Assembly (NCBI GenBank): GCA_965197425.1 | Contig: CBDANC010000014.1 | Coordinates: forward strand, 1-64,000 | DNA: 64,000 bases | From: Bdellovibrionales bacterium | GTDB lineage: Bacteria; Bdellovibrionota; Bdellovibrionia; Bdellovibrionales; JAUICD01 | Direction: 5' to 3' | Shown here: in pieces, positions 2,964 through 59,586 of the stretch | Numbering within the stretch: position 1 is the stretch's first letter | Layout: each line of letters starts with the position of its first letter | Notes under the pieces: generated by a model | Told to the model about the DNA's origin: nothing | Seen by the model: the letters and a program-made list of their open reading frames with translations, nothing else | Databases searched by the model: none | Translations under genes and position numbers: made by a program

Positions 2964-3226
2964 AAAGGTGAGGTTAATGAGGTAAAAAATAAGGAGGCTT
3001 CGCCTTCTTTTTTTTACCGAATGCCTGACCAGCTCTGAACACGATGATGATCCAGTAACTAAAGGTGAGGTTAATGAACAGCAAACAAACCTGGCTCTGC
3101 CAGTTGGTTCAATTGGCTTACGGGATAAGCCTTTATGTTTTCCAATTGAAATAACCTCCCTACGGTCGGTTTTTTGGCCGAATGCCTGACCAGCTCTGGA
3201 CAAGATGCTGATCCAGTTTCACAAGG
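2964..3226 (+). repeat. Mosaic dispersed repeat, copy 1 (two tandem units)
   Basis: AAAGGTGAGGTTAATGA...GCCTGACCAGCTCTG(G/A)ACA...GATCC occurs twice, with a TTCAATTGG..CCAATTGAA hairpin; same architecture as 20954-21202. Confidence 0.9.
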
Positions 3227-3290
3227 ATTGCATGAAACAATAAAATATGTTAGACCAAGGATAGCTCGAGTGGGTTGTGTCAGAAGTCCT

Positions 3291-3350
3291 AGGTTGAATT
3301 TTAAGCTGAATTTTAAGCTGAATTTTAAGCTGAATTTTAAGTTGAGTTTT
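3291..3350. repeat. 12-bp tandem repeat (AAGCTGAATTTT) x5
   Basis: Three perfect and two variant units upstream of the clpX-like gene. Confidence 0.95.
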
Positions 3351-3556
3351 ACACTAGCAAATATTACCCAACACTTGTAATAGAACATATGTGATAATAT
3401 TAACCATCAATTTTGAGGTTTTATGAAAGATAAAAAACCTAGCTCTAAAACAATAGAGGAAGAGGTCAAAGAGTTAGAAGCTATTTTTCAAAAAAAATTT
3501 GGAAAAAGCCTGGACCTGTTAAAATTTTTGCTGATGTAGTTTATCCCAAAAAACCT

Positions 3557-5029
3557 ATGTCTGCTGAAAAGCCTAAAAGTAGTCAAAGCAAAAAAAGCGT
3601 ATTAAAATTAAAATTCAACTTAAATCCTAAAGAGGTCAAAAATTTTCTAGACAGAAATGTCATCCATCAAGATGAAGCCAAAAAGGTGTTATCAATAGCC
3701 ATTTGTGATCACTATAACCATGTAGACTACTGTATTAAAAATCCTCAAAAAACAAAAACAGATTATGCTAAACAAAATGTTTTGATACTAGGACCAACAG
3801 GTGTTGGAAAAACCTATTTGGTAAGAGAACTTGCAAAATTAGTAGGAGTACCTTTTGTTAAAGCAGATGCAACTAGGTTTAGTGAAACAGGTTATGTAGG
3901 TGCAAATGTCGATGATTTGATAAAAGATCTAGTCAATCAAACTGACGGAGACTATGAGCTAGCGAAATATGGGATCATTTATTTAGATGAAGCAGATAAA
4001 CTAGCTGGTAATTCTTCCATTATAGGAAAAGACATAAGCGGCCGTGGTGTACAATTTGGGCTTTTAAAATTGATGGAAGAAACAGAAGTAGACCTAAGAT
4101 CCTCTAATGACATTGCATCTCAAATGAAAGCATTTATGGATATTCAAACAAAAGGCAAAATTGAAAAAGAAATCATAAACACAAAACACATTTTATTCAT
4201 AGTAAGTGGTGCATTTACTGATTTAGGAGACATTATACAAAAAAGATTAAGCGTAGGTGCTCTAGGTATAGGTGGAAAACTTAAACAAGATGTTAGTGAA
4301 TCTGATTTGTTCAGACAAGTTTCTACTAAAGATCTTATAGATTATGGTTTTGAACCAGAGTTTGTTGGAAGACTTCCTATCAGAGTAAATTGCCACGAAC
4401 TATCAGAAAATGACTTGTTCGATATACTAAAGCACTCAGAAGGTTCGATTATAAAACAATACAAACATGCATTTAAAAGCTATGGCATTGAACTTAGTTT
4501 TGACGATAAGGCTCTAATGGAAATTGCATCGACAGCTCATAAAGAAAAAACTGGAGCAAGAGGTCTGGTTACTGTATTAGAATCCCTATTAAGAGATTAT
4601 AAATTTGAACTCCCTTCCACTGGCGTAGATAAAGTACATGTTACTTATGAACTAGTTAAAAACCCAAACACAGTTCTAAAAAAACTAGTTAAATCTGCAA
4701 AGAAAAACAAAAAATCACCTGCCTACAGAGAAATAGAAAAGTTTGAAAAATATTTTTTTGAAAAACATGGATTTAAAATTGATTTTGATCTGCCAGCCAG
4801 AGACGAAATTCTAAGAGTTGCTGCAAAAGACAAAGTGTCTGCATTTCAGGTGTGTGAAAAAACCTTAGAATCATATGAACACGGTCTTAACCTTATAAAA
4901 CAAAACACCGGCAAAAAATCATTTAAAATCAACAAGTCTGTAATACAAAAACCTGCTGAAGTTTTAGAAAGTTGGATCAAAGAATCATACGCCTACCAAC
5001 TTAAAAACCAAACCCCTACAACATCGTAA
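3557..5029 (+). CDS. ClpX/HslU-family AAA+ ATPase; no N-terminal zinc finger, C-terminal extension
   Basis: GPTGVGKT Walker A, DATRFSETGYVG, IYLDEADK Walker B, TGARGL. The true start may be ATG 3423 (GAGG SD) with a frameshift near 3520. Confidence 0.85.
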   Translation: MSAEKPKSSQSKKSVLKLKFNLNPKEVKNFLDRNVIHQDEAKKVLSIAICDHYNHVDYCIKNPQKTKTDYAKQNVLILGPTGVGKTYLVRELAKLVGVPFVKADATRFSETGYVGANVDDLIKDLVNQTDGDYELAKYGIIYLDEADKLAGNSSIIGKDISGRGVQFGLLKLMEETEVDLRSSNDIASQMKAFMDIQTKGKIEKEIINTKHILFIVSGAFTDLGDIIQKRLSVGALGIGGKLKQDVSESDLFRQVSTKDLIDYGFEPEFVGRLPIRVNCHELSENDLFDILKHSEGSIIKQYKHAFKSYGIELSFDDKALMEIASTAHKEKTGARGLVTVLESLLRDYKFELPSTGVDKVHVTYELVKNPNTVLKKLVKSAKKNKKSPAYREIEKFEKYFFEKHGFKIDFDLPARDEILRVAAKDKVSAFQVCEKTLESYEHGLNLIKQNTGKKSFKINKSVIQKPAEVLESWIKESYAYQLKNQTPTTS

Positions 5030-5071
5030 TAATACTTGCACCCTTCGCAAGAATACTACAGGGATAAGTGC

Positions 5072-5159
5072 TGGTGCCTCCGGGGAGACTCGAACTCCCA
5101 AGGTAATAAATACCGGTGGATTTTGAGTCCACTGCGTCTACCAATTCCGCCACAGAGGC
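5072..5159 (-). tRNA. tRNA-Leu(CAA)
   Basis: Reverse complement reads GCCTCTGTGGCGGAATTGGTAGACGCA-GTGGA-CTCAAAA-TCCAC, long variable arm, GTTCGAG T-loop, ends CACCA. Confidence 0.97.
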
Positions 5160-5223
5160 TTGGCCTACAATTTAGTAGTATCTCCTTACAAGAATATCAA
5201 CTTAAAGGGATAAATATTGGTGT

Positions 5224-5412
5224 TTAAGTAATTGTGTCAAAACGTAATTTACCTATTAAAAACTGGCGAATGTATACATTCCTTAGCCCGAGGTCCACCA
5301 GGAAAGAGACACTCTGTAAGTACCTGGATCGGCGTCGTGTCCAGGGCTGGGCAACCACGAGGCAAAAAAAGCCAACAAGTCGGCTTGTTTTTGCCTCGTT
5401 CGGAAGACCTTT
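5224..5412 (-). repeat. Mosaic dispersed repeat, copy 2
   Basis: Reverse complement starts AAAGGTCTTCCGAACGAGGC; contains GCCTCGTGGTTGCCCAGC..GGACACGACGCCGATCC and AATTACGTTTTGACACA modules. Confidence 0.85.
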
Positions 5413-5415
5413 GAT

Positions 5416-5533
5416 AAAAAACACCCCTCACCCAAAAGGGAAAGGGGCCAAGGAGCAATAATGCTAGGAATCTTAAAGGGGGGGGGGGCGACCCCTAGCA
5501 CACCTCGGTAGGTAAAAACTACCAAGAAAGCTA
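5416..5533 (-). ncRNA. Candidate small RNA: three hairpins, C11 loop, intrinsic terminator
   Basis: Minus-strand stems CUUGGUAG/CUACCGAG, UGCUAGGGGUC/GAUUCCUAGCA and CCCCUUUCCC/GGGUGAGGGG followed by U6; all gain G-U pairs only on the minus strand. TTGACT at 5562-5567 lies upstream. Confidence 0.55.
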
Positions 5534-5619
5534 TGGAGAATTAGCCTGTTTTTTAATCAAAAGTCAAACACCAAAATTTAAGCAGCCTCAAACCATGGAA
5601 AAATTATATTATAAAGGTA

Positions 5620-5686
5620 AGCTGGGCAACCACGAGGCCAAAAATCAAACAAGTTCACTTTATTGGCCTCGTTAGGAAGACCTTTA
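5620..5686 (-). repeat. Mosaic dispersed repeat, copy 3 (short)
   Basis: GCTGGGCAACCACGAGGCC...GGCCTCGTTAGGAAGACCTTTA on the + strand. Confidence 0.85.
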
Positions 5687-5843
5687 TTACAATTTTTGTC
5701 ACTTAAGTATATAAAATAGACAATTTGAACAATAAAAATACAATCCAAAAATCAAACAAAAATACCAAAATAAACATATCATATATATAAAATCCTAATA
5801 AAATTAATATGTTATAATCATTAAGGTGTTCAGCTTACATACC

Positions 5844-5860
5844 TCGGCATAGGTTTTGCT
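5844..5860 (+). promoter_or_regulatory. Sigma-54 (-24/-12) promoter
   Basis: TCGGCATAGGTTTTGCT has exact GG-N10-GC spacing, 32 bp upstream of the ATG at 5893. Confidence 0.65.
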
Positions 5861-5892
5861 TAATATATAAGTCATATGGATCGGAGGTTTGT

Positions 5893-6993
5893 ATGAGACT
5901 AACAAAAAAACTAATGTATCCAGCTATTATAGCTCTTTGCATTAGCACTTATCAAACTTCTTCTGCAAGAGATTGGGACAGAGGGAGTAACAATTATACG
6001 GGTGATACCCATTGGGATGGCTATAGAAACAATACCAAACAAGAAAGCCCTGTTTATAATAGCGAAATCACATACAATGCTTTTCCTAGAGAAGCAAAGG
6101 TTGTAGGCCGTGCCAATTACACAATAAGAGGTAGATACAACGATAACCCATCTGAAAGATTAGTAAATATCGGTGAAAAAATACAAGAAAAGAAAAATGA
6201 AACTGTTCAAAGATACGATAAAAAAGTATCTACTATCATTGATAATGAAGTAGAAAAAACTTTGGACAAAATTGAAGGTTCAATCGACTCACCTGTTCAT
6301 GGCTATTCGCACCTGTCTGCTCATCCACACGGTGGTGGTGATCATCATGGTGTTATAGCTTCTCAGGTTGTGCCTGCACATTCAGCTCATACCTACCATG
6401 TAAAAAGAAAAAAATCTTCCGTATACCTTGGTGGAAGTTTTAACTACGGAATTTTTCATGGAGTTTCTCACATAAGAAATGGTTTAGGTACAAGTGCACT
6501 TATAGGTCTAACTGCACTAGATACTAATGTATCTGCAGAATTTGGATTTAACTACAACAGATACAACCTAGGACATTACTACGGTGTACCTCAAAACTAT
6601 CGTGCTAACCATAGTTACATGAACAATATAAATCATCTTGAAGAATACTCTGGTTCTATTAATGTAAGGTATCACTTACTACACTCTTCTGCTCTAAGAC
6701 CTTCTTTCGGTTTGGTAGCTAGTTACAGATATAGAACATACGCTCCAAATACTTATCGCTATGATAACTATACATCTGTTGATGCAATAGATTGTGGTTT
6801 TTCTGCTGGCTTAGACTTTGTAATTAGTGACAGACTGAGTTTTGGAGTAGACTACAAATATATGCTAAATCTTCATAATGCGGTTGATGGATTCTACCAA
6901 GACGATCTTTATGGAAGAAAGTATTTTGGATTAGACAACACAGAAAACCTAAATTACATGCTATTTAACTTTACTACTAGATTATTCTTTTAA
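5893..6993 (+). CDS. Outer-membrane beta-barrel protein with His-rich N-terminal region
   Basis: Signal peptide, amphipathic Tyr/Gly-rich strands (FSAGLDF..LSFGVDYKY), C-terminal Phe; GGAGG SD. Confidence 0.7.
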   Translation: MRLTKKLMYPAIIALCISTYQTSSARDWDRGSNNYTGDTHWDGYRNNTKQESPVYNSEITYNAFPREAKVVGRANYTIRGRYNDNPSERLVNIGEKIQEKKNETVQRYDKKVSTIIDNEVEKTLDKIEGSIDSPVHGYSHLSAHPHGGGDHHGVIASQVVPAHSAHTYHVKRKKSSVYLGGSFNYGIFHGVSHIRNGLGTSALIGLTALDTNVSAEFGFNYNRYNLGHYYGVPQNYRANHSYMNNINHLEEYSGSINVRYHLLHSSALRPSFGLVASYRYRTYAPNTYRYDNYTSVDAIDCGFSAGLDFVISDRLSFGVDYKYMLNLHNAVDGFYQDDLYGRKYFGLDNTENLNYMLFNFTTRLFF

Positions 6994-7010
6994 ACAAACT
7001 CCCCTACTAC

Positions 7011-7042
7011 AAAAAAGGCTACCAAACAGTAGCCTTTTTTTT
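7011..7042. terminator. Bidirectional intrinsic terminator
   Basis: A6-GGCTAC-caaaca-GTAGCC-T8 between convergent genes. Confidence 0.85.
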
Positions 7043-7062
7043 GTCTCAAAAATAAAAGTAAC

Positions 7063-8190
7063 TCACAGATTACTTCCATCTTTATATATCTGATCCAATA
7101 AAATTTGGTTTTCTTCAAAAGTACACAATTTATCAATTGATAATAACTTCCTCTTACCAGACTCACCCCGACCAACCATTATGACGTAGTTAATACTTAA
7201 AGAAATAAGCTTTCTGATACTAAGGATATTCCAACTACTTGCACCCAACTGCACCAAAAATTCCAACCTTATTAAAGCTTCCCTGGCAGAACTTGCATGC
7301 AGTGTACACAAACACCCTTTATGCCCAGTAGAAAGAGCTAACAAATAATCCTTTGCTTCCTTACCCCTTAACTCACCCAAAACAATACGATCAGGACGCA
7401 TCCTCAATGACTCAAAAATAAGATCATTCAAAGAAACCGGAGCTAAATTAGGATTATTTCTTGTAAGTAACTTAGCACTCACATTGTTTGGTTTTGTAAT
7501 TTCACAAGCATCCTCCAATATAAGCACCCTTTCATTGTCGTCACACAAATTAAGCAGAGCAGATAAGAATGTCGTTTTACCAGAACTGGTTTCCCCTATA
7601 ATCAAAATGTTGTTCTTTTTTTTCAATAGAGAGGCAACTAACTTCATTTCTCTGTCACCTGCAAAACCATTTTTCTCCAAAAAAGCCATATCCAATGAAG
7701 CAGAAGAAGTTCGCCTAAATGTTACCTGCGTTTCATTGGATACCAAAGATTGCCTTACCACATGCATCCTAAAACCTTTCCACTTAGCGGTAATAAATGG
7801 ATTATCAACTGAAGGATCTATATTACACTCATGATATATTCTGTTCATACAATTACTAAATGAAGTTTGGGACATAAAATTATCTTCATGCTTATGTATA
7901 GTCCCACCACGCTCTACCCAGATATTGCCAGAACCTATTAAAATAATCTCAGATATTGTCTTATCATCAATTAAACTCTGTAACGGGCCATAGGCAAAAA
8001 ACTCATCATAAATTCTTTTGCTTAAATTTTTATCCAAACCCTCAATGTATTTGTTTACAATACTCAATGCTTCTGAATTTTTGTTTGAACTAGAAAACTC
8101 CAACTCCGACATAGGAAGTTTGGATATTTCCTTTAAAAGATCCAATACGATAGATTTAGTTTTATCCATCCTTGATCTCCTATATGCCAC
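7063..8190 (-). CDS. cpaF: Tad/Flp pilus assembly ATPase (CpaF/TadA family)
   Basis: YGPLQSL, GETSSGKTT, LRMRPDRIVLGELRG, TGH, TLHA motifs. Confidence 0.85.
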   Translation of the reverse strand: MAYRRSRMDKTKSIVLDLLKEISKLPMSELEFSSSNKNSEALSIVNKYIEGLDKNLSKRIYDEFFAYGPLQSLIDDKTISEIILIGSGNIWVERGGTIHKHEDNFMSQTSFSNCMNRIYHECNIDPSVDNPFITAKWKGFRMHVVRQSLVSNETQVTFRRTSSASLDMAFLEKNGFAGDREMKLVASLLKKKNNILIIGETSSGKTTFLSALLNLCDDNERVLILEDACEITKPNNVSAKLLTRNNPNLAPVSLNDLIFESLRMRPDRIVLGELRGKEAKDYLLALSTGHKGCLCTLHASSAREALIRLEFLVQLGASSWNILSIRKLISLSINYVIMVGRGESGKRKLLSIDKLCTFEENQILLDQIYKDGSNL

Positions 8191-9442: not shown

Positions 9443-9455
9443 GAAACAAATATAA

Positions 9456-9754: not shown

Positions 9755-11197
9755 ATGTCTCAACAATTTAAACAAACCTTAAACACATCTCAAGTGCAGA
9801 CAATAAGAATTACTCCTCAACTGCAACAGGCAATTAAGCTTTTACAGATGTCTAGAATTGAACTAGAAACTGCCGTAAGAAAAGAGATGGAAGAAAATCC
9901 AGCTCTGGAAGAAGCTCTTGAAGCGCCTACAGAAGATCTGAAAGAAGGCGAACTTAGAGATTCAAAAGAAAGCGACATAGAATCCCACGACGATCCCAGA
10001 AAAGCAGACCAAGATGAGTTTGATTGGGAAAAATATGTGGAAAGCGCCGCAGCCACAGATCAAACATTAACAAGATACCACAAAGACGAAGCTAGAAATT
10101 ATGAAAATGTAATTTCATCACCTCAAACCCTTTCGGATCACTTAACATGGCAAGTAGGCCTAAATGGTTTTAGTGATGAAGAAATTTATATGGTAAGCAA
10201 ACTAATAGAATATGTAGAAGATGATGGCTACATCAAAACGCCCTTAGAAAAAATATCTCTGGAAGAAAACATTGAATTAAAATTTTTAGAAGAAAACCTA
10301 ACTCTATTACATGAATTTGATCCACCAGGTGTTGGTGCTAGAAACTTAGAAGAATGTCTTTTAATCCAAGCAAAACACTTGGAAGAAGATACAAAGGATG
10401 TGGTAGAACTAATACAAAACCATCTAAATGATTTAGAAAAAAGAGACTATGAAACGATAGCAAAGAGCATGAATCTAAGCATTGGATATATAAAAGAACT
10501 ATGTAAGATAGTGTTTGATATGGATCCTAAACCTGGTTTTGCCTTTTCGCAGACCAGTGATATTCACTATGTTACCCCAGATGTGTTCATAACCAAAGTA
10601 AACAATGAATATATAGTAACGCTAAATGATGAAGGTGTACCTAGATTGAGAATTTCAAATTTTTATAAACAAGCAATTCGCTCTGGTTCCCTGGAAAAAA
10701 AAGAAGCAAAAAATTATATAAAAGAACGATTAAAATCAGCTAGGTTTTTAATAAAGTCGATTGAGCAAAGACAGAAAACCATAAGTAAAGTGACAGGCAG
10801 TATTATAAAACATCAACTAGATTTTTTTGAAAAAGGAAAAGATTATATAAAACCCATGATTCTAAGAGACATTGCCCAAGATGTAGGTTTGCATGAGTCA
10901 ACTGTATCCAGAGTTACCTCCAACAAGTACATGCATACACCCAAAGGAGTGTTTGAACTTAAATATTTCTTTAATTCAGGAGTATCCAGTGATAGCGGTG
11001 AATTTGTTGCCAGTAACTCTGTTAAGTCACAAATAAAAAATATCATAAAAAATGAAAATCTCAAAAAACCATACTCAGATCTCAAGCTCATGGAAATTTT
11101 GAAAGACAAGGGTATTAATATAGCCAGACGAACTGTGGCAAAGTACAGAGAAAGCCTTGGAATTGCCCCCTCAAGAAATAGAAAAAGATTTAACTAA
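9755..11197 (+). CDS. rpoN: RNA polymerase sigma-54 factor
   Basis: TPQLQQAIKLLQMS, DPPGVGAR, HESTVSR and RpoN box ARRTVAKYRE. Confidence 0.98.
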   Translation: MSQQFKQTLNTSQVQTIRITPQLQQAIKLLQMSRIELETAVRKEMEENPALEEALEAPTEDLKEGELRDSKESDIESHDDPRKADQDEFDWEKYVESAAATDQTLTRYHKDEARNYENVISSPQTLSDHLTWQVGLNGFSDEEIYMVSKLIEYVEDDGYIKTPLEKISLEENIELKFLEENLTLLHEFDPPGVGARNLEECLLIQAKHLEEDTKDVVELIQNHLNDLEKRDYETIAKSMNLSIGYIKELCKIVFDMDPKPGFAFSQTSDIHYVTPDVFITKVNNEYIVTLNDEGVPRLRISNFYKQAIRSGSLEKKEAKNYIKERLKSARFLIKSIEQRQKTISKVTGSIIKHQLDFFEKGKDYIKPMILRDIAQDVGLHESTVSRVTSNKYMHTPKGVFELKYFFNSGVSSDSGEFVASNSVKSQIKNIIKNENLKKPYSDLKLMEILKDKGINIARRTVAKYRESLGIAPSRNRKRFN

Positions 11198-11460
11198 AGG
11201 TCTTCCCCAACATTGATTGAATCTGACAATAAGCTGGCTTTGCCAGATTTTGACAGATGAATTACGTTTTGACACAGCCACTTTAAAACTCCAACAACTT
11301 GCTTTCCTTTTTTCAATTGGCTCACGGGATAAATCTTTATACTTTCCAATTGAAATGACCTCTCTGTGGTCGGTTTTTGCTAAATGGTTGCCCAGCTCTA
11401 GACACGATGCTGATCCCGTTACACAAGGTCCTCCGATGAGGCAAATAAGATGAATTGGTG
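11195..11460 (+). repeat. Mosaic dispersed repeat, copy 4
   Basis: Starts TAAAGGTCTTCCCC at the rpoN stop, contains all main modules, and ends in ATAAGATGAATTGGTG overlapping the tRNA 3' end. Confidence 0.9.
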
Positions 11461-11544
11461 CGCCAAAGTGGACTTGAACCACCACGGAAAATTAATTCCA
11501 CTAGGCCCTCAACCTAGCCTGTCTACCAATTCCAGCATTGGCGC
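11456..11544 (-). tRNA. tRNA-Leu(GAG)
   Basis: Reverse complement reads GCGCCAATGCTGGAATTGGTAGACAGG-CTAGG-TTGAGGG-CCTAG, variable arm, GTTCAAG, ends CACCA. Confidence 0.97.
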
Positions 11545-13543: not shown

Positions 13544-13551
13544 AACAACAC

Positions 13552-17934: not shown

Positions 17935-17937
17935 TTG

Positions 17938-20953: not shown

Positions 20954-21202
20954 AGGTGAGGCTAATGAGGCAAAAACAAGGAGGCTTCGCCTACTTTTTT
21001 TTGCCGAGTGCCTGACCAGCTCTGGACACGATGCTGATCCAGTAACTAAAGGTGAGGCTAATGAGGCCAAAACAAGGAGGCTTCGCCTACTTTGGTTCAA
21101 TTGGCTCACGGGATAAATCTTTATACTTTCCAATTGAAATAACCTCCCTGCGGTCGGTTTTTAGCCGAATGCCTGACCAGCTCTGGACCTCACAACTGAT
21201 CC
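20954..21202 (+). repeat. Mosaic dispersed repeat, copy 5 (two tandem units)
   Basis: AGGTGAGGCTAATGAGGC..AGGAGGCTTCGCCTACTT twice, TTCAATTGG hairpin, CCAGCTCTGGAC..GATCC twice. Confidence 0.9.
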
Positions 21203-21351
21203 TATTCAAAATATCCTAGCACTCAAACTGGTTTTAGGTCCGTATTGGCGTATTATTTAGAGTCTTTATAGATACTTTTCAATAGTCTTAGTCTTGAAAT
21301 TTGACATGAAATCTACTAGAAATATAGGGTAATTTTTAAAAGGGAAGTTTT

Positions 21352-29611: not shown

Positions 29612-29785
29612 AATACCTACTTTTTGTTCCTAATGATAAATAAAGATCGACATAGATAATGCATAACTTAAAACATTAATTCCTAGTTTTTTAAAATGTT
29701 TGACGCTGAATAATTTTGGCTAAAAACTGTACACTTTTTGTATAAAGTGTACTAAAGTAATACTCTCGAGGATGAGTTTGATGAC

Positions 29786-30083
29786 ATGTGTAGAGCTGGG
29801 CAACCACTCGGCAAAAAGGAAAGCAAAGCTTCCCTTATTTGCCTCGTTAGGAAGACCTTTAGCAACGGGATCAGCTGTGAGGTCCAGAGCTGGACAACCG
29901 CCAAGGCAAAAAACCGACCGCAGGGAGGTTATTTCAATTGGAAAACATAAAGGTTTATCCAGTGAGCCAATTGAATCAAGCCTCATTGTTTTTAAAGTTA
30001 CTGTGTCAAAACGTAATTCACCTGGCAAAAGTCAGCGAAGCCAACTTGTTGCCAGGTTCAATCAATGCTGAGGAAGACCTTTA
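29786..30083 (-). repeat. Mosaic dispersed repeat, copy 6 (long unit plus short unit)
   Basis: Reverse complement starts TAAAGGTCTTCC; 29978-30083 matches 30533-30638 with one mismatch. Confidence 0.92.
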
Positions 30084-30093
30084 GGAGGGATAA

Positions 30094-30405
30094 ATGTTAG
30101 TAAGACGGTGGCGGGCTCAGATGATGCCTACCCCTGATCAGATAAAACTTATTTTCCTGCAGGAAGATTTGAGACCTAAGTTGGAAGTGTATGATTCTGG
30201 TGTGGAAATTTTAGAGCATCGACATCCATTTGACGAAATACGCATGGTCGCAAGTGGTGAGTTGTTTATCAATGTATCAGGCAATCAATTGTTATTACGC
30301 CCTGGTGATCGAATTGAGATACCATCTAATACTAGACATTCTACCGTAAACAAAAAAGATTCTAAATGTGTTTGTGTAGTAGCAAATCAAGTATTTAGAT
30401 CATAA
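30094..30405 (+). CDS. Cupin domain protein
   Basis: HRHPFDE..V.SGEL, LRPGD.I.IPSNTRH. Confidence 0.85.
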   Translation: MLVRRWRAQMMPTPDQIKLIFLQEDLRPKLEVYDSGVEILEHRHPFDEIRMVASGELFINVSGNQLLLRPGDRIEIPSNTRHSTVNKKDSKCVCVVANQVFRS

Positions 30406-30416
30406 CACTCACTTCA

Positions 30417-30638
30417 AGCAACGGTATCGGCATCAGTGTCCAGTGCTGGGCAACCACGAGGCCAAAAACCGACCGCAGGGAGGTTATTTCAATTGGAAAG
30501 TATAAGGATTCATCCCGTGAACCAATTGAAAAAAGCCTCATTGTTTTTAAAGTTACTGTGTCAAAACGTAATTCACCTGGCAAAAGTCAGCGAAGCCAAC
30601 TTGTTGCCAGGTTCAATCAATGCTGGGGAAGACCTTTA
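30417..30638 (-). repeat. Mosaic dispersed repeat, copy 7
   Basis: Same modules as copies 4 and 6; overlaps the mtgA 3' end. Confidence 0.92.
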
Positions 30639-31350
30639 ACTCCTCTTTTGCATTATTAAATTCCAACTCGTCTATTTTATTGTATTGAAATAAATCACCT
30701 AAAATATCAGATGTCCTCTCCATATTATACTCAGTCAATTTTCCATCAAGAAAGCCCTTGGAGTAAAGTACTGGATTTGGTAGTAGATGCGCCAAAAAAG
30801 CACTCTGAGCTAGGGACAAAAATACGGGATGTTTATTAAAGTAATACCAACTGGCATCATTAATGCCATGTAAATTTTCACCAAACTGAACAACATTAAT
30901 ATACTTTTCTAAAATTTGTTCTTTTGAAAGTATATTTTCCAAGTGATGGGTCATTACTGCTTCTTTCAGCTTTCTAATGATAGACTTTTCTTTATTTAAA
31001 AATACATTCTTCACTAGCTGCTGAGTTATTGTTGAGCCTCCCCTATAGAGTTTTTTTCTTTTTAGGTTGGTTTTAATGCTTTCTTTGAATTCTCTTAAGT
31101 CAAAACCAGAATGTGTATAGAATGCACCATCTTCCGATACCACAAGTGCATCTAGAAAGTGTAAAGATACAAAATTTAATCCTATATAACTCGGACTTTC
31201 TTCACATAACTCTACTTTATTCATACTAGTGGTAAGACATTCATTGATTCTCAATACCTTTTTCTTGTAGTAAAATGAAACAACAAAAAACAAAGCTAAC
31301 ATGCCTACCAATGCCAGTGATGAAAGCTGTATTAACTTCTTTTTTTTCAT
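30613..31350 (-). CDS. mtgA: Monofunctional peptidoglycan glycosyltransferase (GT51)
   Basis: SEDGAFYTHSGFD, GGSTITQQLVKN, RKLKE, KEQILEKYIN. Confidence 0.88.
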   Translation of the reverse strand: MKKKKLIQLSSLALVGMLALFFVVSFYYKKKVLRINECLTTSMNKVELCEESPSYIGLNFVSLHFLDALVVSEDGAFYTHSGFDLREFKESIKTNLKRKKLYRGGSTITQQLVKNVFLNKEKSIIRKLKEAVMTHHLENILSKEQILEKYINVVQFGENLHGINDASWYYFNKHPVFLSLAQSAFLAHLLPNPVLYSKGFLDGKLTEYNMERTSDILGDLFQYNKIDELEFNNAKEELKVFPSID

Positions 31351-32321: not shown

Positions 32322-32360
32322 ATATTAACTTTAAAGGGATTTGCTCATTATGTCCATTTT

Positions 32361-32646
32361 AACGGGATTGACATCAGTGTACAAAGCTGGGCAACCGCCA
32401 AGGCAAAAAACCGACCGCAGGGAGGTTATTTCAATTGGAAAACATAAAGGTTTATCCCGTGAGCCAATTAAACCAAAGTGAACAAGTCCACTTGTTTTTG
32501 ACTTCGTTAGGAACGACCTTGTGTAACGGAATCGGCATCGTGTCCACCAGGAAACAGCCACTCGGCTAAAAGATGCCTTGGTTACATTTGGACTTCGTCC
32601 TGCATTTCACCAATTCATCTTATCAGCCTCATTAGGCTCACCTTTA
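32361..32646 (-). repeat. Mosaic dispersed repeat, copy 8 (two units)
   Basis: Reverse complement starts TAAAGGTGAG at the cyclophilin stop; contains GGACTTCGTCC and CCAATTGAAATAACCTCCCTGCGGTCGG modules. Confidence 0.9.
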
Positions 32647-33312
32647 CTTTTCAATAGTAATGCTTTCAATAGTAACAGGTGTTATAGGTTTATCGTTATG
32701 CATGTTTCTTTCGACTGTACTGATTTCTCTTACAACATCCATACCAGAAACAACTTGCCCAAAAATGGAGTGTTTTCCATCCAAATGAGGCGTAGCATTT
32801 AATGTGATAAAAAACTGACTCTCCCCTGTGTTAGGACCAGCATTAGCCATAGACACCACGCCAGCTTTGTTATGTTTTAAACTAGGATTAAACTCATCTT
32901 GAATTTTAGAGCCAGTCCCACCTGTTCCGTTACCCAAAGGACAACCAGTTTGAATCATAAATGACGGTATAACACGATGAAATGTCAAACCATTATAAAA
33001 AGGCTTTTTTACAGTCTTTTTCTCTTTCATATCAAGATGATCCTTGGTCCCTTCTGCTAAACCAACAAAGTTAGCTACCGTTATAGGTGCATACCTTGAA
33101 AAAAGCTCAATCTTAATATCCCCTTTAGAAGTCTTAATGTTTCCAAACATCTTTTCCGCCTTAATATTTTTTGCCTTAGGTGACTTACTTCTAGATACAT
33201 CATCCTCACCCTTAGCAGAAAGATTTTGTGTTCCAAAAATCCCAACCATACCCACCACGCTTAATATTGTTATAAAGTTTTTAGGATTTGATTTTTTATA
33301 ATGAGTTATCAT
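32644..33312 (-). CDS. Cyclophilin-type peptidyl-prolyl isomerase, exported
   Basis: APITVANF, FHRVIPSFMIQ, SMANAGPNT..SQFFIT, HLDGKHSIFG. Confidence 0.95.
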   Translation of the reverse strand: MITHYKKSNPKNFITILSVVGMVGIFGTQNLSAKGEDDVSRSKSPKAKNIKAEKMFGNIKTSKGDIKIELFSRYAPITVANFVGLAEGTKDHLDMKEKKTVKKPFYNGLTFHRVIPSFMIQTGCPLGNGTGGTGSKIQDEFNPSLKHNKAGVVSMANAGPNTGESQFFITLNATPHLDGKHSIFGQVVSGMDVVREISTVERNMHNDKPITPVTIESITIEK

Positions 33313-51308: not shown

Positions 51309-51320
51309 GTTTTAGTTTTT

Positions 51321-51400
51321 ATTGCCTGATTGCCCGTTTGCCTGCTTGCCCGATTGGCTGATTGGCTGATTACCTGACTGCCCGATTACCTGACTGCCTG
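51321..51400. repeat. 8-bp tandem array (consensus ATTGCCTG) x10
   Basis: attgcctg attgcccg tttgcctg cttgcccg attggctg attggctg attacctg actgcccg attacctg actgcctg. Confidence 0.92.
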
Positions 51401-51408
51401 ATCCCAGA

Positions 51409-51702
51409 TCATGTATTCTTACACAGTTTGTATAGATATCCTCCCAGTGTATTTGCGTCTTTTATTAGATTTTTGTTGTTTATGATCTCTAGTATTGCTT
51501 GTGTTTCCCTAAGCGACCCAAGGCTTATAGAATAAAACTTTCTTCTATCTTTAGCTGTTGGCTTTGCAGTTCCTTCTGCAAGATTTAGTACAATGCTTAG
51601 GATAGCCCTTTGGAACTGATTTTTAAGCGGTTCTTTTAAGTATAAATTCTTAGAATTGTTATAGAACCTAACTGCTAATTGATATGTTTTTAATTTTTTC
51701 AT
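51409..51702 (-). CDS. Four-helix bundle protein (23S rRNA IVS protein family, Avd-like fold)
   Basis: L..YQLA..F, L.NQ..RA..SI.LNLAEG, .KF..IS.GSL.E pattern; 97 aa, basic. Confidence 0.85.
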   Translation of the reverse strand: MKKLKTYQLAVRFYNNSKNLYLKEPLKNQFQRAILSIVLNLAEGTAKPTAKDRRKFYSISLGSLRETQAILEIINNKNLIKDANTLGGYLYKLCKNT

Positions 51703-51710
51703 AATATGCT

Positions 51711-51783
51711 GTCTCCTTTTTTAGAAAAAATATTTGCTCTATAGTTTTTATCTGAGAGGAAATATTTTTAAAAAAAAGGAGAC
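51711..51783 (-). promoter_or_regulatory. ~30-bp inverted repeat covering the SD of the four-helix gene
   Basis: GTCTCCTTTTTTAGAAAAAATATTTGCTCT (51711-51740) pairs with AGAGGAAATATTTTTAAAAAAAAGGAGAC (51755-51783). Confidence 0.75.
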
Positions 51784-51784
51784 C

Positions 51785-51840
51785 ATTGCCTGAATGCCAG
51801 ATTGACTGATTGACTGATTGACTGCTTGCCCGTTTGCCCA
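51785..51840. repeat. 8-bp tandem array (ATTG(A/C)CTG) x7
   Basis: attgcctg aatgccag attgactg attgactg attgactg cttgcccg tttgccca. Confidence 0.9.
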
Positions 51841-51861
51841 CCCACTTGATAACTATCAGAC

Positions 51862-51953
51862 AAAAAGATGTTTTAGGTTCACTTGGACTTCGTCCTGCAT
51901 TTCACCAATCTATCTTATTTGCCTCGTTAGGAAGATCTCGAGTGGAAGACCTT
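51862..51953 (-). repeat. Mosaic dispersed repeat, copy 9 (partial)
   Basis: TTGGACTTCGTCCTGCATTTCACCAAT..TCTTAT..GCCTC matches ~32588-32630; overlaps the RND gene end. Confidence 0.85.
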
Positions 51954-54900: not shown

Positions 54901-55048
54901 TATTAATATTGACAACTTCAAAGGATATATTGGGGAAAGCTTCCTTTTTAATATTAAAAGCTGCATATGTTCCCATAAGGAACACATAGATAAGCACTAA
55001 GACAGCTAAGAATCCCTGTCTTGCAAAAAAATCAATTAGAGCTTTCAA
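51902..55048 (-). CDS. RND efflux transporter permease (AcrB/AcrD/AcrF family)
   Basis: PGASP.EIE..IT.PLE, GMLVDDAVVVVEN, GVIVNNSIVL, RLRPIFLTTVTT..G.LP; 1048 aa. Confidence 0.95.
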   Translation of the reverse strand: MKALIDFFARQGFLAVLVLIYVFLMGTYAAFNIKKEAFPNISFEVVNINTIFPGASPGEIERLITNPLEQDLKEVTGVKEMKSTSIENRSYISLIVDPDQTTAYEVKQDAQEIVERFIELPKDAEKPIVLELESNDQPILELLLIGNVPKLKKRAFARDLEKKLLKLDGVSKIEPFGMEELEIHIEAIPGKLSRYQLSLNDLILAVGNQNVSIPGGMIEVSDGKEFIVRTVGEYETTLDIEDTVVRANDIADAIRIKDVAKVVQTTSKPTTLYRAQNQDAITLTVIKKESADAIDLVDRVQTFINTLEDEITREGLSIEYANDASYYIRRRLSVLVNNLGVGLCLVLLVLSLFFPFKIAILTAIGIPFAFLGTLIFFNSVGISINLLTMMGLIIVVGMLVDDAVVVVENSMRYIERGHDSHEGAIVGTQEIWQPVTAAVTTTIVVFLPLMFMDGIFGKFVSNLPLGVLAGLVFSLIECFFILPHHIGFLLRKADFTKDKNKIYKRVDRFWNNKLVVLYESFLKFSLKKRYYVTTFAVILFFSTIFVSHKFMKVILFPPDGVEIFLVKAEAPVGTTVNETARLIKPVEDKVSQLSSEELDVFITKVGTQQLSSSDPVIRVGTNLAQMVVYLTPEPDRDRTAKEIIEALRKETKIPDGLDTLTFERIQPGPPTGDPISIGVNADEYEEILPVVATLKDFLQTIPGTSDIRDTYVMGKKELQVKLRQEEANAAGLNVTDVGLTVRSAFEGVEATQIHTLDEEIAVKVTWPSDKKQSLDSIRRLKITNRFGQLIPLSSVAEFTHTQGVASFDHQDNERQVRILGDIDTTVNSVLAVNKQALDFIKENSEKFKSVTFSFGGEDEDTKESFASLGRTFVVAILGVFLILVITFQSILQSLLVLFLTIPLGMIAVIWAFFVHGLPITFLGSLGLIALSGVIVNNSIVLIVFVNNARKKGMPKLDSIVSACKVRLRPIFLTTVTTVAGILPTAYGIGGLDKFVVPMAMALGWGICIGSILTTVVLPSSLAILDDIKSLFSRSSTRDLPNEANKIDW

Positions 55049-56465
55049 GCTTGTTTCCTATTTTTTTATATTTATCTTCTATTGTTTTGAGATATTCTTG
55101 GATTGTGTCATACATCTTGGCCACTTCCCATCCTGTGAATTGTAATTCTTCTTTTGAATCGATCAAATCTAAATTTGCAACAAGTTGCTCTTCTCCTGTT
55201 TGAATAAGTTGTAATATGGTTGATCTACCTATTGAATATCTTTTCTCCTCTAGTACCATTATTTTCTTGTAGTTTTTTAAAGTCTCCTCTTTGAGTTTAA
55301 CCGATTCATTTAAAAATGAAAGTTTGGAACACATATTGAGCCAATCTCTTTTAATGTTGGTTTTTAATGATGCCAATTGTGCATTTGTTTTTGCCTCTCT
55401 TCCAAGCGCAGTGTACAGCTCTGCTTTGGCAGCATTGTTGGGTAATGGATATGATAGCCTGAAACCAATATTCCAGTCCTCTGGCATATCTTCAATTGGT
55501 AACTGTCTGTATTGAAATATAAGATCAAAATTCGGTAAGAACATTAGTTTTTTATTTTTTACATCCAAAGACATGGCTTTACTTTGATTTTCCAGTGCTT
55601 TTACTTCTAATGAAGTCTCTGGGGCATTTTTAGAACACAGCTCTAGTGATTTTTCGAACATGCTGTCGGTCTTTGTAGGTACTATATTTGGATCAATATT
55701 TAGCCACTCTCCTTCTAATTTGATATTTAGTGCCAGCTCATTCCAGAACTCTTGCATAACTTGCTGAGTTTGGTTGTATTGAATTTTAGATGAGGTAAGA
55801 GTCGATTTAGCTCTTAGAAGATCACCTTCTTCTGCCGTTCCCCTATTTAGTTTTATGTTTGTTATTTTAACAAGCTTTTCTTTATTTTTTAAGTTTTCCT
55901 TTAAAGAATCAGATTTTAACTTAGAACTTACTGCCTTATAGTAAAATCTAATTACATTGAGCATCCAATCTTCTATTGATTTTTTATAAAACCCGAGTTG
56001 TGCTTCAGAAGTAAGGCTACCTATTTTTTTTGATCTTCTAGATTTAATACCAAACATATCATTCATCAAGGACTGTGAAATAGATATAGAAGCGAATTCT
56101 CCCAATCGGTTGCTATTTGAACCAACCTCAATCCCTGTACCTGTGGAAAAATATTTACTCACACTAATTGTATTTTCAGTCATAGTTGTTAAGTCATTTA
56201 GTAAAAGCTCCTGGCGAGTCAGATTTAACTTGGGGTCATGAGGAGCTAATGCACGATATTTGTAACTGGGTATTATATATTTATCTGCCTCTATAATCTT
56301 AAAGTGATCAGAGTGCATCATACTCAGAGCAATTATAGACTCTGTATCCAAGCTCCCACCCAGAACATCCAACTTTTTTTTCATAGATGGAGTAAGTTCA
56401 GTGATCTTATTCGCTTTTGATATTTGAGGAGATAAAAGCATTAAAATTACAATTGCAAATTTCAT
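55032..56465 (-). CDS. TolC-family outer membrane efflux protein
   Basis: Signal peptide, LP.FDL, W.IG..LSYPL.N, EEKRYSIGRST; adjacent to the RND gene. Confidence 0.8.
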   Translation of the reverse strand: MKFAIVILMLLSPQISKANKITELTPSMKKKLDVLGGSLDTESIIALSMMHSDHFKIIEADKYIIPSYKYRALAPHDPKLNLTRQELLLNDLTTMTENTISVSKYFSTGTGIEVGSNSNRLGEFASISISQSLMNDMFGIKSRRSKKIGSLTSEAQLGFYKKSIEDWMLNVIRFYYKAVSSKLKSDSLKENLKNKEKLVKITNIKLNRGTAEEGDLLRAKSTLTSSKIQYNQTQQVMQEFWNELALNIKLEGEWLNIDPNIVPTKTDSMFEKSLELCSKNAPETSLEVKALENQSKAMSLDVKNKKLMFLPNFDLIFQYRQLPIEDMPEDWNIGFRLSYPLPNNAAKAELYTALGREAKTNAQLASLKTNIKRDWLNMCSKLSFLNESVKLKEETLKNYKKIMVLEEKRYSIGRSTILQLIQTGEEQLVANLDLIDSKEELQFTGWEVAKMYDTIQEYLKTIEDKYKKIGNKLESSN

Positions 56466-56498
56466 CCAGAGAAGATTAGCATCAAAATATTTACACTT

Positions 56499-57311
56499 TC
56501 AACACAAAATAGACTTTTTGTTTATCCCCATGTGGCAGATCGCAAAATCGTACTTAGTTGGATTTTTTGGATCCAGTTTTTTTAAGGAATTAGTTATGTC
56601 CTGAGCAGTGACCCAGTCAGCACTGTTTCTCTTAGTAAGACCCAAAATTTTAGATTGTCTCATAAGATGGGTGTCTAGAGGAATTATTAACTCTTTTTTA
56701 TCAAAGCTCTTCCATATGTTTAAATCCATTTGAGTATCCCCTACCATCCATCTAAGAAACAGATTTAACCTTTTACAAGCGCTTTTATTTGAAGGCTTTG
56801 GCAGTAGATAAAAAAACGATTTTTTTTTGACCAAGGGAGGCGTTACTTTGGGTTTTAAATTAACCAAACCATCTACAATTCGATTTAACAGTTCAAAAGC
56901 TGTATCAGTCTTTTTAGGCTTAAAATATTTTTCCATAGATCCGGAAGTGTTATAAACATGCCTCAATAAAATTAAAAGATCGTATAGATCTTGAGAATCA
57001 TTAAACCTGTGCTTCCAACCTCGATAAGTTCTATAAATCGTACTAGGGCTAGTGTTTACAAGCCACTTGTAAGGGTTACTCCCCATGGGCTTTATTATTT
57101 TATTTACACTATTTTTAATTTGATCCACCCTACCATAAGCAAAGGTTGCAGATAAAAAAGCCACAAGCTCCTTATCTCGCTTCGTCTTAAAGGCTAATAC
57201 AGGTGCTATTGCATCATTTACCACCTCATGATTTTTTACATACTCAAGGTGCACCCTATCTAATGTTTTTTTTAGCTTTGTTGTAAAATTCATATGCATA
57301 TATTCAACCAC
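56499..57311 (-). CDS. TIGR02757/DUF2400 family protein
   Basis: E..AFLSA.FAYG, SACKRLNLFLRWMV, IIPLDTH, P.KYDFA. Confidence 0.9.
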   Translation of the reverse strand: MVEYMHMNFTTKLKKTLDRVHLEYVKNHEVVNDAIAPVLAFKTKRDKELVAFLSATFAYGRVDQIKNSVNKIIKPMGSNPYKWLVNTSPSTIYRTYRGWKHRFNDSQDLYDLLILLRHVYNTSGSMEKYFKPKKTDTAFELLNRIVDGLVNLKPKVTPPLVKKKSFFYLLPKPSNKSACKRLNLFLRWMVGDTQMDLNIWKSFDKKELIIPLDTHLMRQSKILGLTKRNSADWVTAQDITNSLKKLDPKNPTKYDFAICHMGINKKSILC

Positions 57312-57479
57312 ATATCAGTTAGCATTGGTCTGGAAAATTTACAATTATATAACTTAAAAGTTTTTTTAAAAAAATCTATATTATAATGAACCTTGCAGAT
57401 ACTTATGGCCTTTAGAATCTTTAACAAAAACAAATAATATAACCAATGAAATAATATCTGTAGAGGATCAAGCTAGTTT

Positions 57480-58625
57480 ATGTGTAAAAAAAGCTTAGTA
57501 TTGTCTTTAATGTTATTTATATCAAACATAGCAACTGCTTCAGATTGTGTTGATGCACTGACTGATAAAAGAGAAATCCACAAGTTGGCTAAGCAATTCT
57601 TTGATGCAAGTACATATGGAGATGTTGAGCAAATCAATTTTTTACTTGAACAATATCCAGGTCTTATAAATATACAAGACGCATTTGGAAACTCACCTTT
57701 AATACTTGCAAGTACTCTAGGACACCATAATGTTGTTCTAGCTTTATTGGATTACGAGCCTATATATGATGAAGTCCATGCTCATCCATTAGGTAATTTT
57801 GATTATTTTAATACTTTTTCGATAAACTTTCCTCAAAATGTAGATGTAAATATCGTGGATGATTACGGTAGAAACGCCATGATGTGGGCAAGTGCTATGG
57901 GATACAACCACATAGTTGAGCTTTTTATGAAGGAAGGATCAACTATTATGGACACTAAAGACAATAATGGAATGACTGCGTTATCCTTAGCAGCTGAGGC
58001 AGGACATATTGAAGTAGTTGAAACCTTACTGCAAACACTTGAAACAGATGGCCTGTTCAAAATGCTCAGTTCTGATGTTTTTCAAAAGCTTCAAGCATCA
58101 GTTAAAAAAGACATAGAAGAGAAAACAGTTGATATTAACTCAAAAGATTATTATGGGTTTACACCCTTGTTGTGGGCAACCTACAACAATCATCCTGAAG
58201 TAATCAAAGCTCTGATAGACAACGATGCCAGTAAGAAGTTTAGCAATATTCTCTCTGGAGACGAAGAAGTAAGCTTTTATGAACTTGAAAGCCTATACAA
58301 CATCCCTTTTCTTGATGTTAACCTAGAAGATGGAAAAGGATATACAGCATTACATTGGGCAGCCGTGTTGGCTGACTATAACACTGTAAAACTTTTACTT
58401 GATACACATGATGTGGATGTATCCGATATTGATCTTGATAAAATTCAGCATCGAGATATTGAGATATTCTTAGATAAACATGAATATTTTGATAATTTTT
58501 ATAAAGACATTGCCACAGCCTGGAACGAAAAAATCATAAATCCATATACCATCATGGTATGGGCAAACAAGTTTTTATCGGATAATCGTTACTATGACAG
58601 TGACATATATGATCTCAGTTTATAA
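57480..58625 (+). CDS. Secreted ankyrin-repeat protein with inserted loops
   Basis: Signal peptide; GNSPLILAS.LGH, GMTALSLAA..GH, GFTPLLWA, GYTALHWAA. Confidence 0.92.
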   Translation: MCKKSLVLSLMLFISNIATASDCVDALTDKREIHKLAKQFFDASTYGDVEQINFLLEQYPGLINIQDAFGNSPLILASTLGHHNVVLALLDYEPIYDEVHAHPLGNFDYFNTFSINFPQNVDVNIVDDYGRNAMMWASAMGYNHIVELFMKEGSTIMDTKDNNGMTALSLAAEAGHIEVVETLLQTLETDGLFKMLSSDVFQKLQASVKKDIEEKTVDINSKDYYGFTPLLWATYNNHPEVIKALIDNDASKKFSNILSGDEEVSFYELESLYNIPFLDVNLEDGKGYTALHWAAVLADYNTVKLLLDTHDVDVSDIDLDKIQHRDIEIFLDKHEYFDNFYKDIATAWNEKIINPYTIMVWANKFLSDNRYYDSDIYDLSL

Positions 58626-58669
58626 TATTAAACAATTATCAAAGCAACATTAGCAGAAAGCGAAAACTT

Positions 58670-59443
58670 TTAAGTTTGCTTGAATCGGTTTTCAAATAAT
58701 TTTTTGAACATTGTAGGAGATATTTCTTCTGCTCTTGCATTTTTGGGTAAGTTAAATTTTTCCAAATGACAATCGAGCCATTTGACATTGGATACTACTT
58801 TTTTTCTTCTGTTTGAAAAAGCTTTTTTTACAAATCTTAGAAAGTCTAGTTTAGATTCGATTTCGTTATTTATTTTTTCAAAGGACAGTACTCTGCTAAA
58901 CACTCTAGGGGGTGGATAGAAATCTTTTGGGCCCAAGTTGACAACTTGTTTTATGTTCCAAAAATTTTGAGCTATAACAGACAATATTCCATAGTCTTTT
59001 TTTTCTCCTTTTTTTGCCATGATTCTATCTGCTACTTCTTTTTGAAACATAAGAACCATTTTATCCAGAGCTGGATTATCTATTGATCTATCTACTAGAA
59101 TTCTGGAGGCTATTTTGTAGGGTAAGTTACTAACCAACACAGTGCCTCGCTCAATTAACTTAGTCCAATCAATTTTTAGTGCATCACCATGAATTATTTG
59201 AGCTCCATTCCACTTATTAGTAAATTTTTTTTCCTTCTCTACTAAAACAATATTATTGTGTTTTTTCATTAAGTGATCTGTGAGAGAGCCAAGTCCAGGG
59301 CCTATTTCGATGATTTTTTTAGGATTATCAACAAGGGCTTCACTAATAATTGTTAAAATCACTTTTTCATTTACCAAAAAGTTTTGTCCCATATTTTTTT
59401 TTGGTATATGAGCCAAACTTTTTAGCTGATCTTTTATTCTCAT
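58670..59443 (-). CDS. rsmA: 16S rRNA m6,2A dimethyltransferase
   Basis: GQNFL, EIGPGLG, SNLPY, MFQKEVADR, F.NRRK. Confidence 0.96.
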   Translation of the reverse strand: MRIKDQLKSLAHIPKKNMGQNFLVNEKVILTIISEALVDNPKKIIEIGPGLGSLTDHLMKKHNNIVLVEKEKKFTNKWNGAQIIHGDALKIDWTKLIERGTVLVSNLPYKIASRILVDRSIDNPALDKMVLMFQKEVADRIMAKKGEKKDYGILSVIAQNFWNIKQVVNLGPKDFYPPPRVFSRVLSFEKINNEIESKLDFLRFVKKAFSNRRKKVVSNVKWLDCHLEKFNLPKNARAEEISPTMFKKLFENRFKQT

Positions 59444-59457
59444 AACACTGACCCTCG

Positions 59458-59586
59458 CCTAGCAACAAACTGGCTTCCCCAGTTTTTGATAAGCGAATTA
59501 CGTTCCGGCACAGTTACTTAACACTCAAAAGTGAAAACAAAACATCATTTGGCCGAGTGGTTGCCCAGCTTTCTACCTCATAGCTT
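59458..59586 (+). repeat. Mosaic dispersed repeat, copy 10 (degenerate)
   Basis: GCAACAAACTGGCTT..GAATTACGTT..CACAGTTACTT and GGCCGAGTGGTTGCCCAGCT modules. Confidence 0.75.

Follow-up and report, generated by a model that had tools for sequence, protein, structure and literature searches.

The DNA analysed here, a stretch of 64,000 nucleotides (nt) from a Bdellovibrionales bacterium (hereafter the window; C14:1-64000 of assembly G000, which comprises 1.6 Mb at 35% GC and is rated 99% complete), carries ten loci of a dispersed hairpin family that together amount to 2,104 base pairs (bp). A preliminary description made from the letters alone had reported ten mosaic copies totalling about 2 kb, and each was located where it had been placed, as were all the heads, hairpins, optional blocks and the right-end motif quoted there. 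The unit of the family consists of a fixed 5’ head, a single long imperfect hairpin and a 3’ linker of 28-30 nt. A separate 66-nt hairpin, recognised by its TTCAATTGG block and referred to here as the I hairpin, lies within several copies. The units and remnants read in the window are:

2951-3226, plus strand: two-unit B-type array (head AAAGGTGAG, tail GCCTGACC, linker), the second unit with an I hairpin at about 3104-3169
5216-5270, minus strand: C-type remnant (3’ arm and AATTACGTTTTGACAC tail), upstream of tRNA-Leu(CAA) at 5072-5159
5314-5422, minus strand: short A-type unit with head AAAGGTCTTCC at 5412, a 47-nt body, tail GTTGCCCAGC and linker
5619-5697, minus strand: short A-type unit that ends directly after its tail
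11191-11460, plus strand: C-type unit with an I hairpin at about 11308-11373, an A tail and linker, then a partial unit
20954-21203, plus strand: two-unit B-type array, the second unit with an I hairpin at about 21092-21157
29768-30086, minus strand: C-type unit with an I hairpin at about 29914-29979, an A tail and linker, then a short A-type unit
30400-30638, minus strand: C-type unit with an I hairpin at about 30469-30534, an A tail and linker
32360-32654, minus strand: long rod unit, B head at the cyclophilin stop codon (32551-32644), then an A-type unit with an I hairpin at about 32411-32476
51851-51941, minus strand: decayed long rod unit, adjoining an 8-nt tandem tract and a four-helix-bundle gene
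59457-59577, plus strand: C-type remnant without a head, plus an A tail

Genome-wide, iterated BLAST, the check that the preliminary description had proposed, yields 188 loci in G000, with edges that are possibly slightly generous; they cover 32,674 bp, or 2.2% of the 1,497,033 bp of main contigs, four-helix-bundle genes having been set aside before the count. Core motifs exceed an order-3 Markov copy of the genome by 12- to more than 100-fold (194 exact counts versus 16 for AAGGTCTTC, 129 versus 1 for GTTGCCCAGC and 37 versus 0 for the start of the TTCAATTGG block). Contigs C1, C4 and C11 duplicate housekeeping genes of the main contigs at 53-82% identity and lack the repeat, and are therefore likely DNA of another organism; by eye, C10 is phage-like and C9 eukaryotic in appearance. 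A parser for head, body and tail recovered 190 units in G000 and 148 in G001, a genome of the same genus assembled as a single contig, rated 93% complete and with a median protein identity of 68% to G000. The parser background was 2 units in 52 kb of contaminant contig and 3 and 9 units in 200 kb of two relatives; this loosest set contains some false units, and later tests were restricted to the 161 (G000) and 136 (G001) units that fold below -8 kcal/mol.

Full units are about 95 or 125 nt long, with the head T-N-A/AGGTCTTC (the slash marking the junction) or AGGTGAG. The body, of about 45 or 70-80 nt, folds as one stem, the base of which is formed by pairing of head and tail. Among the 190 parsed G000 units, the head is AAGGTCTTC in 120 and AAGGTGAG in 26, while the tail is GTTGCCCAGC in 99, GCCTGTTT in 18 and GAATTACGTT in 17; particular heads occur with particular tails, since the two pair at the base of the stem. 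The spacing from a tail to the next head is 28-30 nt in 40/56 cases in G000 and 40/47 in G001, with linkers that differ in sequence. The head strand folds better than its complement with DNA parameters (151/190 and 131/148 units in G000 and G001, respectively) and with RNA parameters (152/190 and 122/148), so folding picks out the strand but not the molecule. C(RNA)G-type triloops are especially stable in DNA, and such triloops, mostly C(AAA)G and C(GAA)G, dominate the apical loops of long units; short units have T-rich triloops. Stem irregularities, namely a tandem T-T at the base and a GAA/GTA loop, are kept. The true ends are not inverted repeats: the first 12 nt and the reverse complement of the last 12 nt agree at 3.0 and 4.5 of 12 positions (n = 53 and 61). 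Thus, the earlier statement that terminal inverted repeats are lacking holds, even though head and tail pair internally. Nor is there a palindrome at each terminus; one rod runs from the 5’ end and is followed by the unpaired linker. As for the right end, the motif given in the preliminary description is present, but it is merely the commonest of several linkers, and many copies end before it. A coding role for the units was rejected, as their periods are not multiples of three; only that of the I hairpin is. A further small repeat, GTGGATACTCCACTCGTA, has 19 exact-pattern sites in G000 (C6:23199, C6:39201, C12:31308, C12:93995 and others), frequently as short tandem runs and in one case within an A-type hairpin.

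In the second species, the shape of the unit is conserved while its sequence and positions are not. A BLAST search of one window copy against 40 relatives returned no match, G001 included, and an exact 13-mer search likewise missed the G001 copies; these were recognised by k-mer analysis and reading of the genome as the same unit with different stems. Both negatives are thus false ones; the G001 stems have been rewritten in sequence. For a structural alignment, 53 long units (24 from G000, 29 from G001) were picked by hand and aligned end to end. RNAalifold predicts 24 pairs, of which 21 show two-sided changes, and 94.4% of alignment cells pair, compared with 73.4% in shuffles (reached by none of 500) and 33-40% in slid controls. 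The preliminary description had put itself at risk on compensatory changes in the stems, and these are abundant. A covariance model of the unit, with 57 candidates scored per genome, matched in two of 61 genomes, G000 and G001. Pattern scans of collections returned chance single matches only (9 viral, 15 in genome contigs), and cross-species pattern scans gave three metagenome matches, at chance level, and no viral ones. Among orthologous genes followed by an element (44 in G000, 39 in G001), two are shared, against 2.9 expected, indicating that the expansions in the two species are independent. An Rfam search, also suggested beforehand, found only tRNA in the window, so that the modules map to no Rfam family; for four element loci it gave three chance-level matches, none reaching the gathering threshold. 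No description of the hairpin family was found in the literature. The novelty lies in the structure common to two species, in the rules of insertion and in the lack of a partner in either genome.

The left junctions follow one rule in both species: T occupies position -3 in 76% and 70% of cases and A position -1 in 96% and 94% (G000, n = 110; G001, n = 67), followed by AGG. The same T-N-A triplet is found at linker ends. Of the co-oriented heads, 26/61 in G000 and 23/53 in G001 fall between -1 and +8 of a stop codon, since the insertion target is T-N-A (TAA); in the window, the head at 11191-11460 overlaps the rpoN stop codon (TAA/AGG), and that at 30400-30638 lies within the final codons of a transglycosylase open reading frame (30613-31350). 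Right ends are variable: at least 30 nt follow the last tail in 44/83 arrays in G000 and 36/71 in G001, and the others end sooner. A search for pairs of paralogous sites, one filled and one empty, returned 11, about half of them informative. At C12:74948 and C12:156865, a 126-nt unit replaces 2-3 target bases without duplication; at G001:518752, 12 target bases are lost and both joints carry 4-nt matches; at C12:74431, two extra units lie 5’ of a unit held in common with C6:46287; and in one pair a B unit sits at a TTA/CA site of a long unit, identical to the site at C13:90435. As the preliminary description had stated, then, insertion occurs without duplicated target bases.

Within operons, sense and antisense copies number 33:47 in G000 and 30:30 in G001. 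The types of intergenic gap occupied are random in G000 (p = 0.18), and convergent gaps are favoured in G001 (23 versus 12.9 expected, p = 0.0004). For G000, contig skew and dnaA served to assign the replichores; the folded strand is of the leading type in 31/86 G000 arrays (p = 0.013) and 43/95 G001 arrays (p = 0.41). Flanks sharing at least five bases with the unit’s linker end number 7/59 in G000, against 1.2 expected, and 0/43 in G001. The linker as a target guide was rejected on these short G000 matches and their absence from G001. So was an IS608-style guide rule (AAAG reading TTAC, with T-N-N-C common at linker ends), which is a post hoc fit with flanks lacking it (14/110 and 4/67) and with which the heads do not clearly covary. 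Some elements start right after the CCA end of a tRNA gene or stop on a match to it (window 11430-11460, C14:86560 and G001 121245); by a strict count the association is modest, at 2/33 tRNA ends in G000 and 3/35 in G001. The window example is the partial unit of 11191-11460, which breaks off where 6 nt match the CCA end of tRNA-Leu(GAG) (11456-11544, minus strand). A headless internal fragment was found at C13:84594, inside a four-helix-bundle gene.

The G000 loci were read on the strand beginning AAGGT, and nesting was judged by eye. The preliminary description had the elements shuffle interchangeable modules. For most combinations this does not hold, as whole units stand beside or inside one another and head and tail types covary as one basal stem; it does hold for one independently mobile part, the I hairpin. 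The mosaics arise by successive and nested insertion of whole units and of the I hairpin. B and A units are nested in loops and T-runs of other units in at least about 16 cases. The I hairpin, with 55 matches, occupies T-runs of A and B units, a C-type tail and, in frame at a single site, 5/19 of the four-helix-bundle (PF05635) genes of G000; its flanks share at most TT, with no target duplication. Well-supported branches force at least three entries into these genes (the five genes are not one clade; p-AU 0.00015), and gene conversion between gene copies could have contributed. Arrays are mostly mixed, with near-identical neighbours in only 2/25 (G000) and 4/34 (G001). Identical copies exist (6 groups among 161 units and 5 among 136). 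When C12:85500-105450 was aligned with contigs of four sequencing runs, module-to-module joints were present in runs of two other studies, and none gave a clean empty site.

We then looked for an enzyme. G000 has no match to Y1, Y2, IS110, DDE_3 (IS630 type), TnpB, reverse transcriptase or tyrosine recombinase, other transposase families not having been searched, and the single contig of G001 has none to these or to the IS1595 type; TnpB was sought as PF07282. One truncated IS1595-type fragment occurs in G000 only. The families that the preliminary description had named for a search (RAYT/Y1, IS200/IS605, IS110 and reverse transcriptase) are thus without a match in either genome, with the limit that repeated genes can drop out of assemblies. 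No protein of unassigned function is among the genes flanked by elements in both species. By-eye inspection of 145 basic soluble orthologs, from 1,003 shared by G000 and G001, gave no candidate except a small serine recombinase (PF00239). This is a single gene in each genome (G000 C12:4669-5388, minus strand; G001 1095237-1095929, plus strand; 77% identical). In both genomes it is syntenic, next to dcd, and in G001 it lies near the terminus; no element ends surround it. Relatives of the gene are present in G002, a genome of the sister genus, and in G004, and the related genome G003 has large ones only. Given the lack of a tyrosine recombinase, and hence of XerCD, and its place near the terminus, the recombinase may replace XerCD in resolving chromosome dimers.

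Y1 genes are not rare around these genomes, being found in 13/21 genomes of the order. A profile built from the Y1 proteins of 26 relatives recovers two G003 genes, both from its own training set; its weak G000 match is an antisense frame of sucC and was discarded. The IS200-like gene of G004 has ends unrelated to the hairpin family. Same-order genomes hold many divergent Y1/RAYT-like genes, up to 17 per genome, several of them flanked by short inverted repeats. In G003 a REP-like repeat of the ordinary sort adjoins a RAYT-like gene; it is unrelated to the family described here.

Compared with known systems, the family works like PATE or REP/BIME elements, yet it lacks features that define each of these, as well as those that define MITE/BOX and IS91 elements. 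PATEs, as presented in PMC3119063, are likewise non-coding and heterogeneous, lack terminal inverted repeats and target duplication, and have a palindrome near the end, a short conserved boundary motif and small elements nested in the palindrome. However, PATEs have a palindrome near each end, whereas here most of the unit is a single long hairpin, truncation of the 3’ end is frequent, insertion removes a few target bases and tandem arrays form; there is also no IS605-type partner in G000 or G001 and no lagging-strand-template bias. With REP, BIME and REPIN sequences, as described in PMC3333891, PMC8266576, PMC3116915 and PMC6006769, the family shares hundreds of intergenic copies making up about 2% of the genome, a strand-specific imperfect hairpin, mosaics, tandem arrays and occasional in-frame gene insertion. 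It thus has the high-copy extragenic imperfect palindromes in mosaics by which REP/BIME sequences are recognised, but its hairpin measures 65-95 nt instead of 20-40 nt, its units stand head to tail instead of in inverted doublets, and the GT[AG]G foot and RAYT gene are missing. The BOX elements of Streptococcus pneumoniae resemble it in their composite look, stem-loop, mutual insertion and extension of gene ends; according to PMC3049150, they end in inverted repeats that have been compared to ISSpn2 and keep the order boxA-boxB(n)-boxC, whereas the present family has no inverted repeats at its ends and owes its variety to whole units and nested hairpins. More generally, MITE/BOX elements are marked by terminal inverted repeats and target duplication matching a DDE transposase, and neither these nor DDE_3 were found. 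IS91 and ISCR elements move by a rolling-circle mechanism with a Y2 transposase. One fixed and one variable end, tandem products and the lack of target duplication are common to them and to this family; in contrast, the Y2 transposase (PF04986) is absent here, the junction motif is only T-N-A instead of a fixed tetranucleotide, arrays are mostly mixed and there is no sign of monomer circles.

Taken together, the independent positions in two species, the duplication-free filled sites, the nested insertions, the lack of an Rfam match and of an intact gene of the searched transposase families bear out the proposal of an undescribed non-autonomous element. How it moved is less certain. With confidence somewhat short of even, we favour genus-specific non-coding hairpins that spread as single-stranded DNA through a HUH transposase (Y1, TnpA/RAYT-like), since lost or acting from outside. 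Strand-specific folding, the kept stem irregularities, insertion 3’ of a short motif, the lack of duplication and the fixed 5’ end fit IS608 chemistry and BIME strand transfer: according to PMC3201880, IS608 inserts 3’ of a short motif, strand-specifically, with the enzyme linked to the element’s 5’ end, and TnpA-REP cleavage and strand transfer is the model for BIME mosaics put forward in PMC3333891. Beyond the anatomy of the sequence, every step is one that we infer. The HUH enzyme would recognise the base of the hairpin and join the 3’ end of the target, at T-N-A, to the 5’ end of the element; the second joint would be made precisely at the linker end or left to host repair at a short match. 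Arrays do grow by addition of units at an existing head, and other hairpins do nest inside units; repeated rounds would produce the mosaics. The enzyme may then have been lost, or may act from outside the assembled chromosomes.

A number of observations weigh against a HUH enzyme. Firstly, no gene for one was found, and with G001 in one contig the model has to invoke either a separate loss in each genome or an outside source; neither genome has PF01797 or PF04986, the Y1 profile gives nothing real in six frames of either, and the hairpin is absent from the flanks of Y1 loci in relatives. Secondly, in G000 the replication-strand bias runs against the lagging-template preference of IS608, and G001 shows no bias. 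Thirdly, GT[AG]G stands at the 5’ foot of the hairpin in just 6/161 G000 and 5/136 G001 units; on the 3’ side of the stem, GTAG is found in 51/136 G001 linkers and 11/161 in G000. Fourthly, an origin of the arrays from monomer circles is not supported, as partial heads at array ends are no closer to their own unit (p = 0.27 and 0.37). Finally, the 53 aligned units share a common descent and had been picked for their folding, both of which somewhat overstate the covariation, and palindrome arms are able to self-correct, which also gives paired changes.

The same lack of enzyme genes makes it conceivable, though doubtful, that the hairpins owe their movement to a host enzyme, or to a so far unrecognised enzyme of single-strand processing, that both genomes share, with the structure as its substrate signal. 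Both genomes, one of them a single contig, lack Y1, Y2, IS110, DDE_3, TnpB, reverse transcriptase and tyrosine recombinase, some copies in each are identical (the 6 and 5 groups above), and the sister genus has its own dense hairpin family, with G002 likewise lacking Y1, Y2, IS110 and reverse transcriptase. No candidate gene emerges, however: none is flanked in both species, and the 145 orthologs yield only the serine recombinase. Most copies are distinct, so the spread may be old, and loss of a transposase after a burst is common. Such an enzyme would belong to a broader picture that we consider unlikely, in which structure-defined, single-stranded mobile hairpins without a known transposase have expanded twice independently in this genus, have an unrelated-looking counterpart in the sister genus and may represent one part of a widespread set of orphan hairpins, with sheared G-A loops, among uncultured microbes.

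Movement without any dedicated enzyme is improbable. Here, a broken 3’ end or stalled polymerase would switch onto an existing hairpin at a short match and back, and self-correction of the palindrome would keep the arms paired. The short joint matches in G000 (7/59 flanks versus 1.2 expected), the small target losses, the headless fragment at C13:84594 and the truncation on the tRNA CCA match are all of the kind that template switching would leave. Yet the 5’ end is sharp in both species, G001 shows no excess joint matching (0/43), and linker length and non-paired motifs persist across the 68% amino-acid divergence, although self-correction should erase mismatches. More improbable still is a structured RNA, a rod with a loop-E-like GAA/GUA motif, that spreads via RNA copies or is retained for a role in termination or regulation. 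The strong covariation, the better folding of the head strand with RNA parameters too, the heads near stop codons (26/61 and 23/53) and the preference for convergent gaps in G001 are what it would lead one to expect. Nevertheless, neither an Rfam match nor, in G000 and G001, a reverse transcriptase was found, sense equals antisense in operons, sites are not common to both species, the stop-codon abutment is explained by the TAA target, and it is the 5’ end of the folded strand that is fixed, opposite to what target-primed reverse transcription gives. The structured-RNA half of the preliminary description is therefore weak at best: its compensatory stems stand, but the copies do not keep their positions and show no bias in orientation relative to transcription. 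Least probable of all is mobilisation by the small serine recombinase or by the four-helix-bundle or Rpn/YhgA-like (PF04754) multigene families, which are at hand (one PF00239 gene in each genome, with relatives in G002 and G004, where a hairpin family of their own is present, and only large ones in G003; 19 four-helix-bundle genes in G000; 16 Rpn genes in G001), given that the recombinase is syntenic beside dcd without flanking element ends, four-helix-bundle genes are absent from G001, the only Rpn gene of G000 is likely contamination and both families are targets of insertion.

REP/BIME-like spread is only partly solved, and published models require a RAYT or TnpA partner. The present family offers an unusually clear anatomy, with a covarying rod, a fixed 5’ end, a measured linker and natural empty sites, in two small genomes nearly without mobile-element genes, so that few enzymes come into question and these can be tested. 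A host or unknown protein as the enzyme would mean that DNA can move by a new route; if a lost RAYT-like gene was responsible, the family would be a well-mapped new variant of ordinary selfish DNA.

Among the neighbouring multigene families, the four-helix-bundle gene at about 51412-51700 (minus strand) lies between 8-nt tandem tracts (window 51313-51852). Besides the 19 genes of G000, there are 14 matches in G002 and 19 in G004, with similar tracts, and none in G001 or G003; the gene looks like a mobile unit of its own, without a transposase. Rpn genes are expanded to 16 matches in G001 (e.g. at 1482328 and 561553), 16 in G002 and 19 in G004, and some G001 copies are split by the hairpin element. 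Rpn is absent from the main contigs of G000, and the single Rpn gene of that assembly lies on C4, where the neighbouring genes duplicate main-contig genes at about 55% identity, making it likely contamination. The hairpin family of G002 and G004 is a different and very dense one, with head TTTCACTMAAA and tail CATGTTAAGGAA; its heads number 120 in 200 kb of G002 and 18 in the same length of G004, its copies nest, form arrays and alternate with 7-nt tracts, and it gave no match to the covariance model (R1) of the G000/G001 unit. Elsewhere in G000, a protein encoded at C13:77592-78740 (minus strand), which may be a topoisomerase VI subunit A, is 92% identical between G000 and G001. In the window, a 12-nt tandem repeat of about five copies (3290-3349) lies between the first array and a clpX-like gene.

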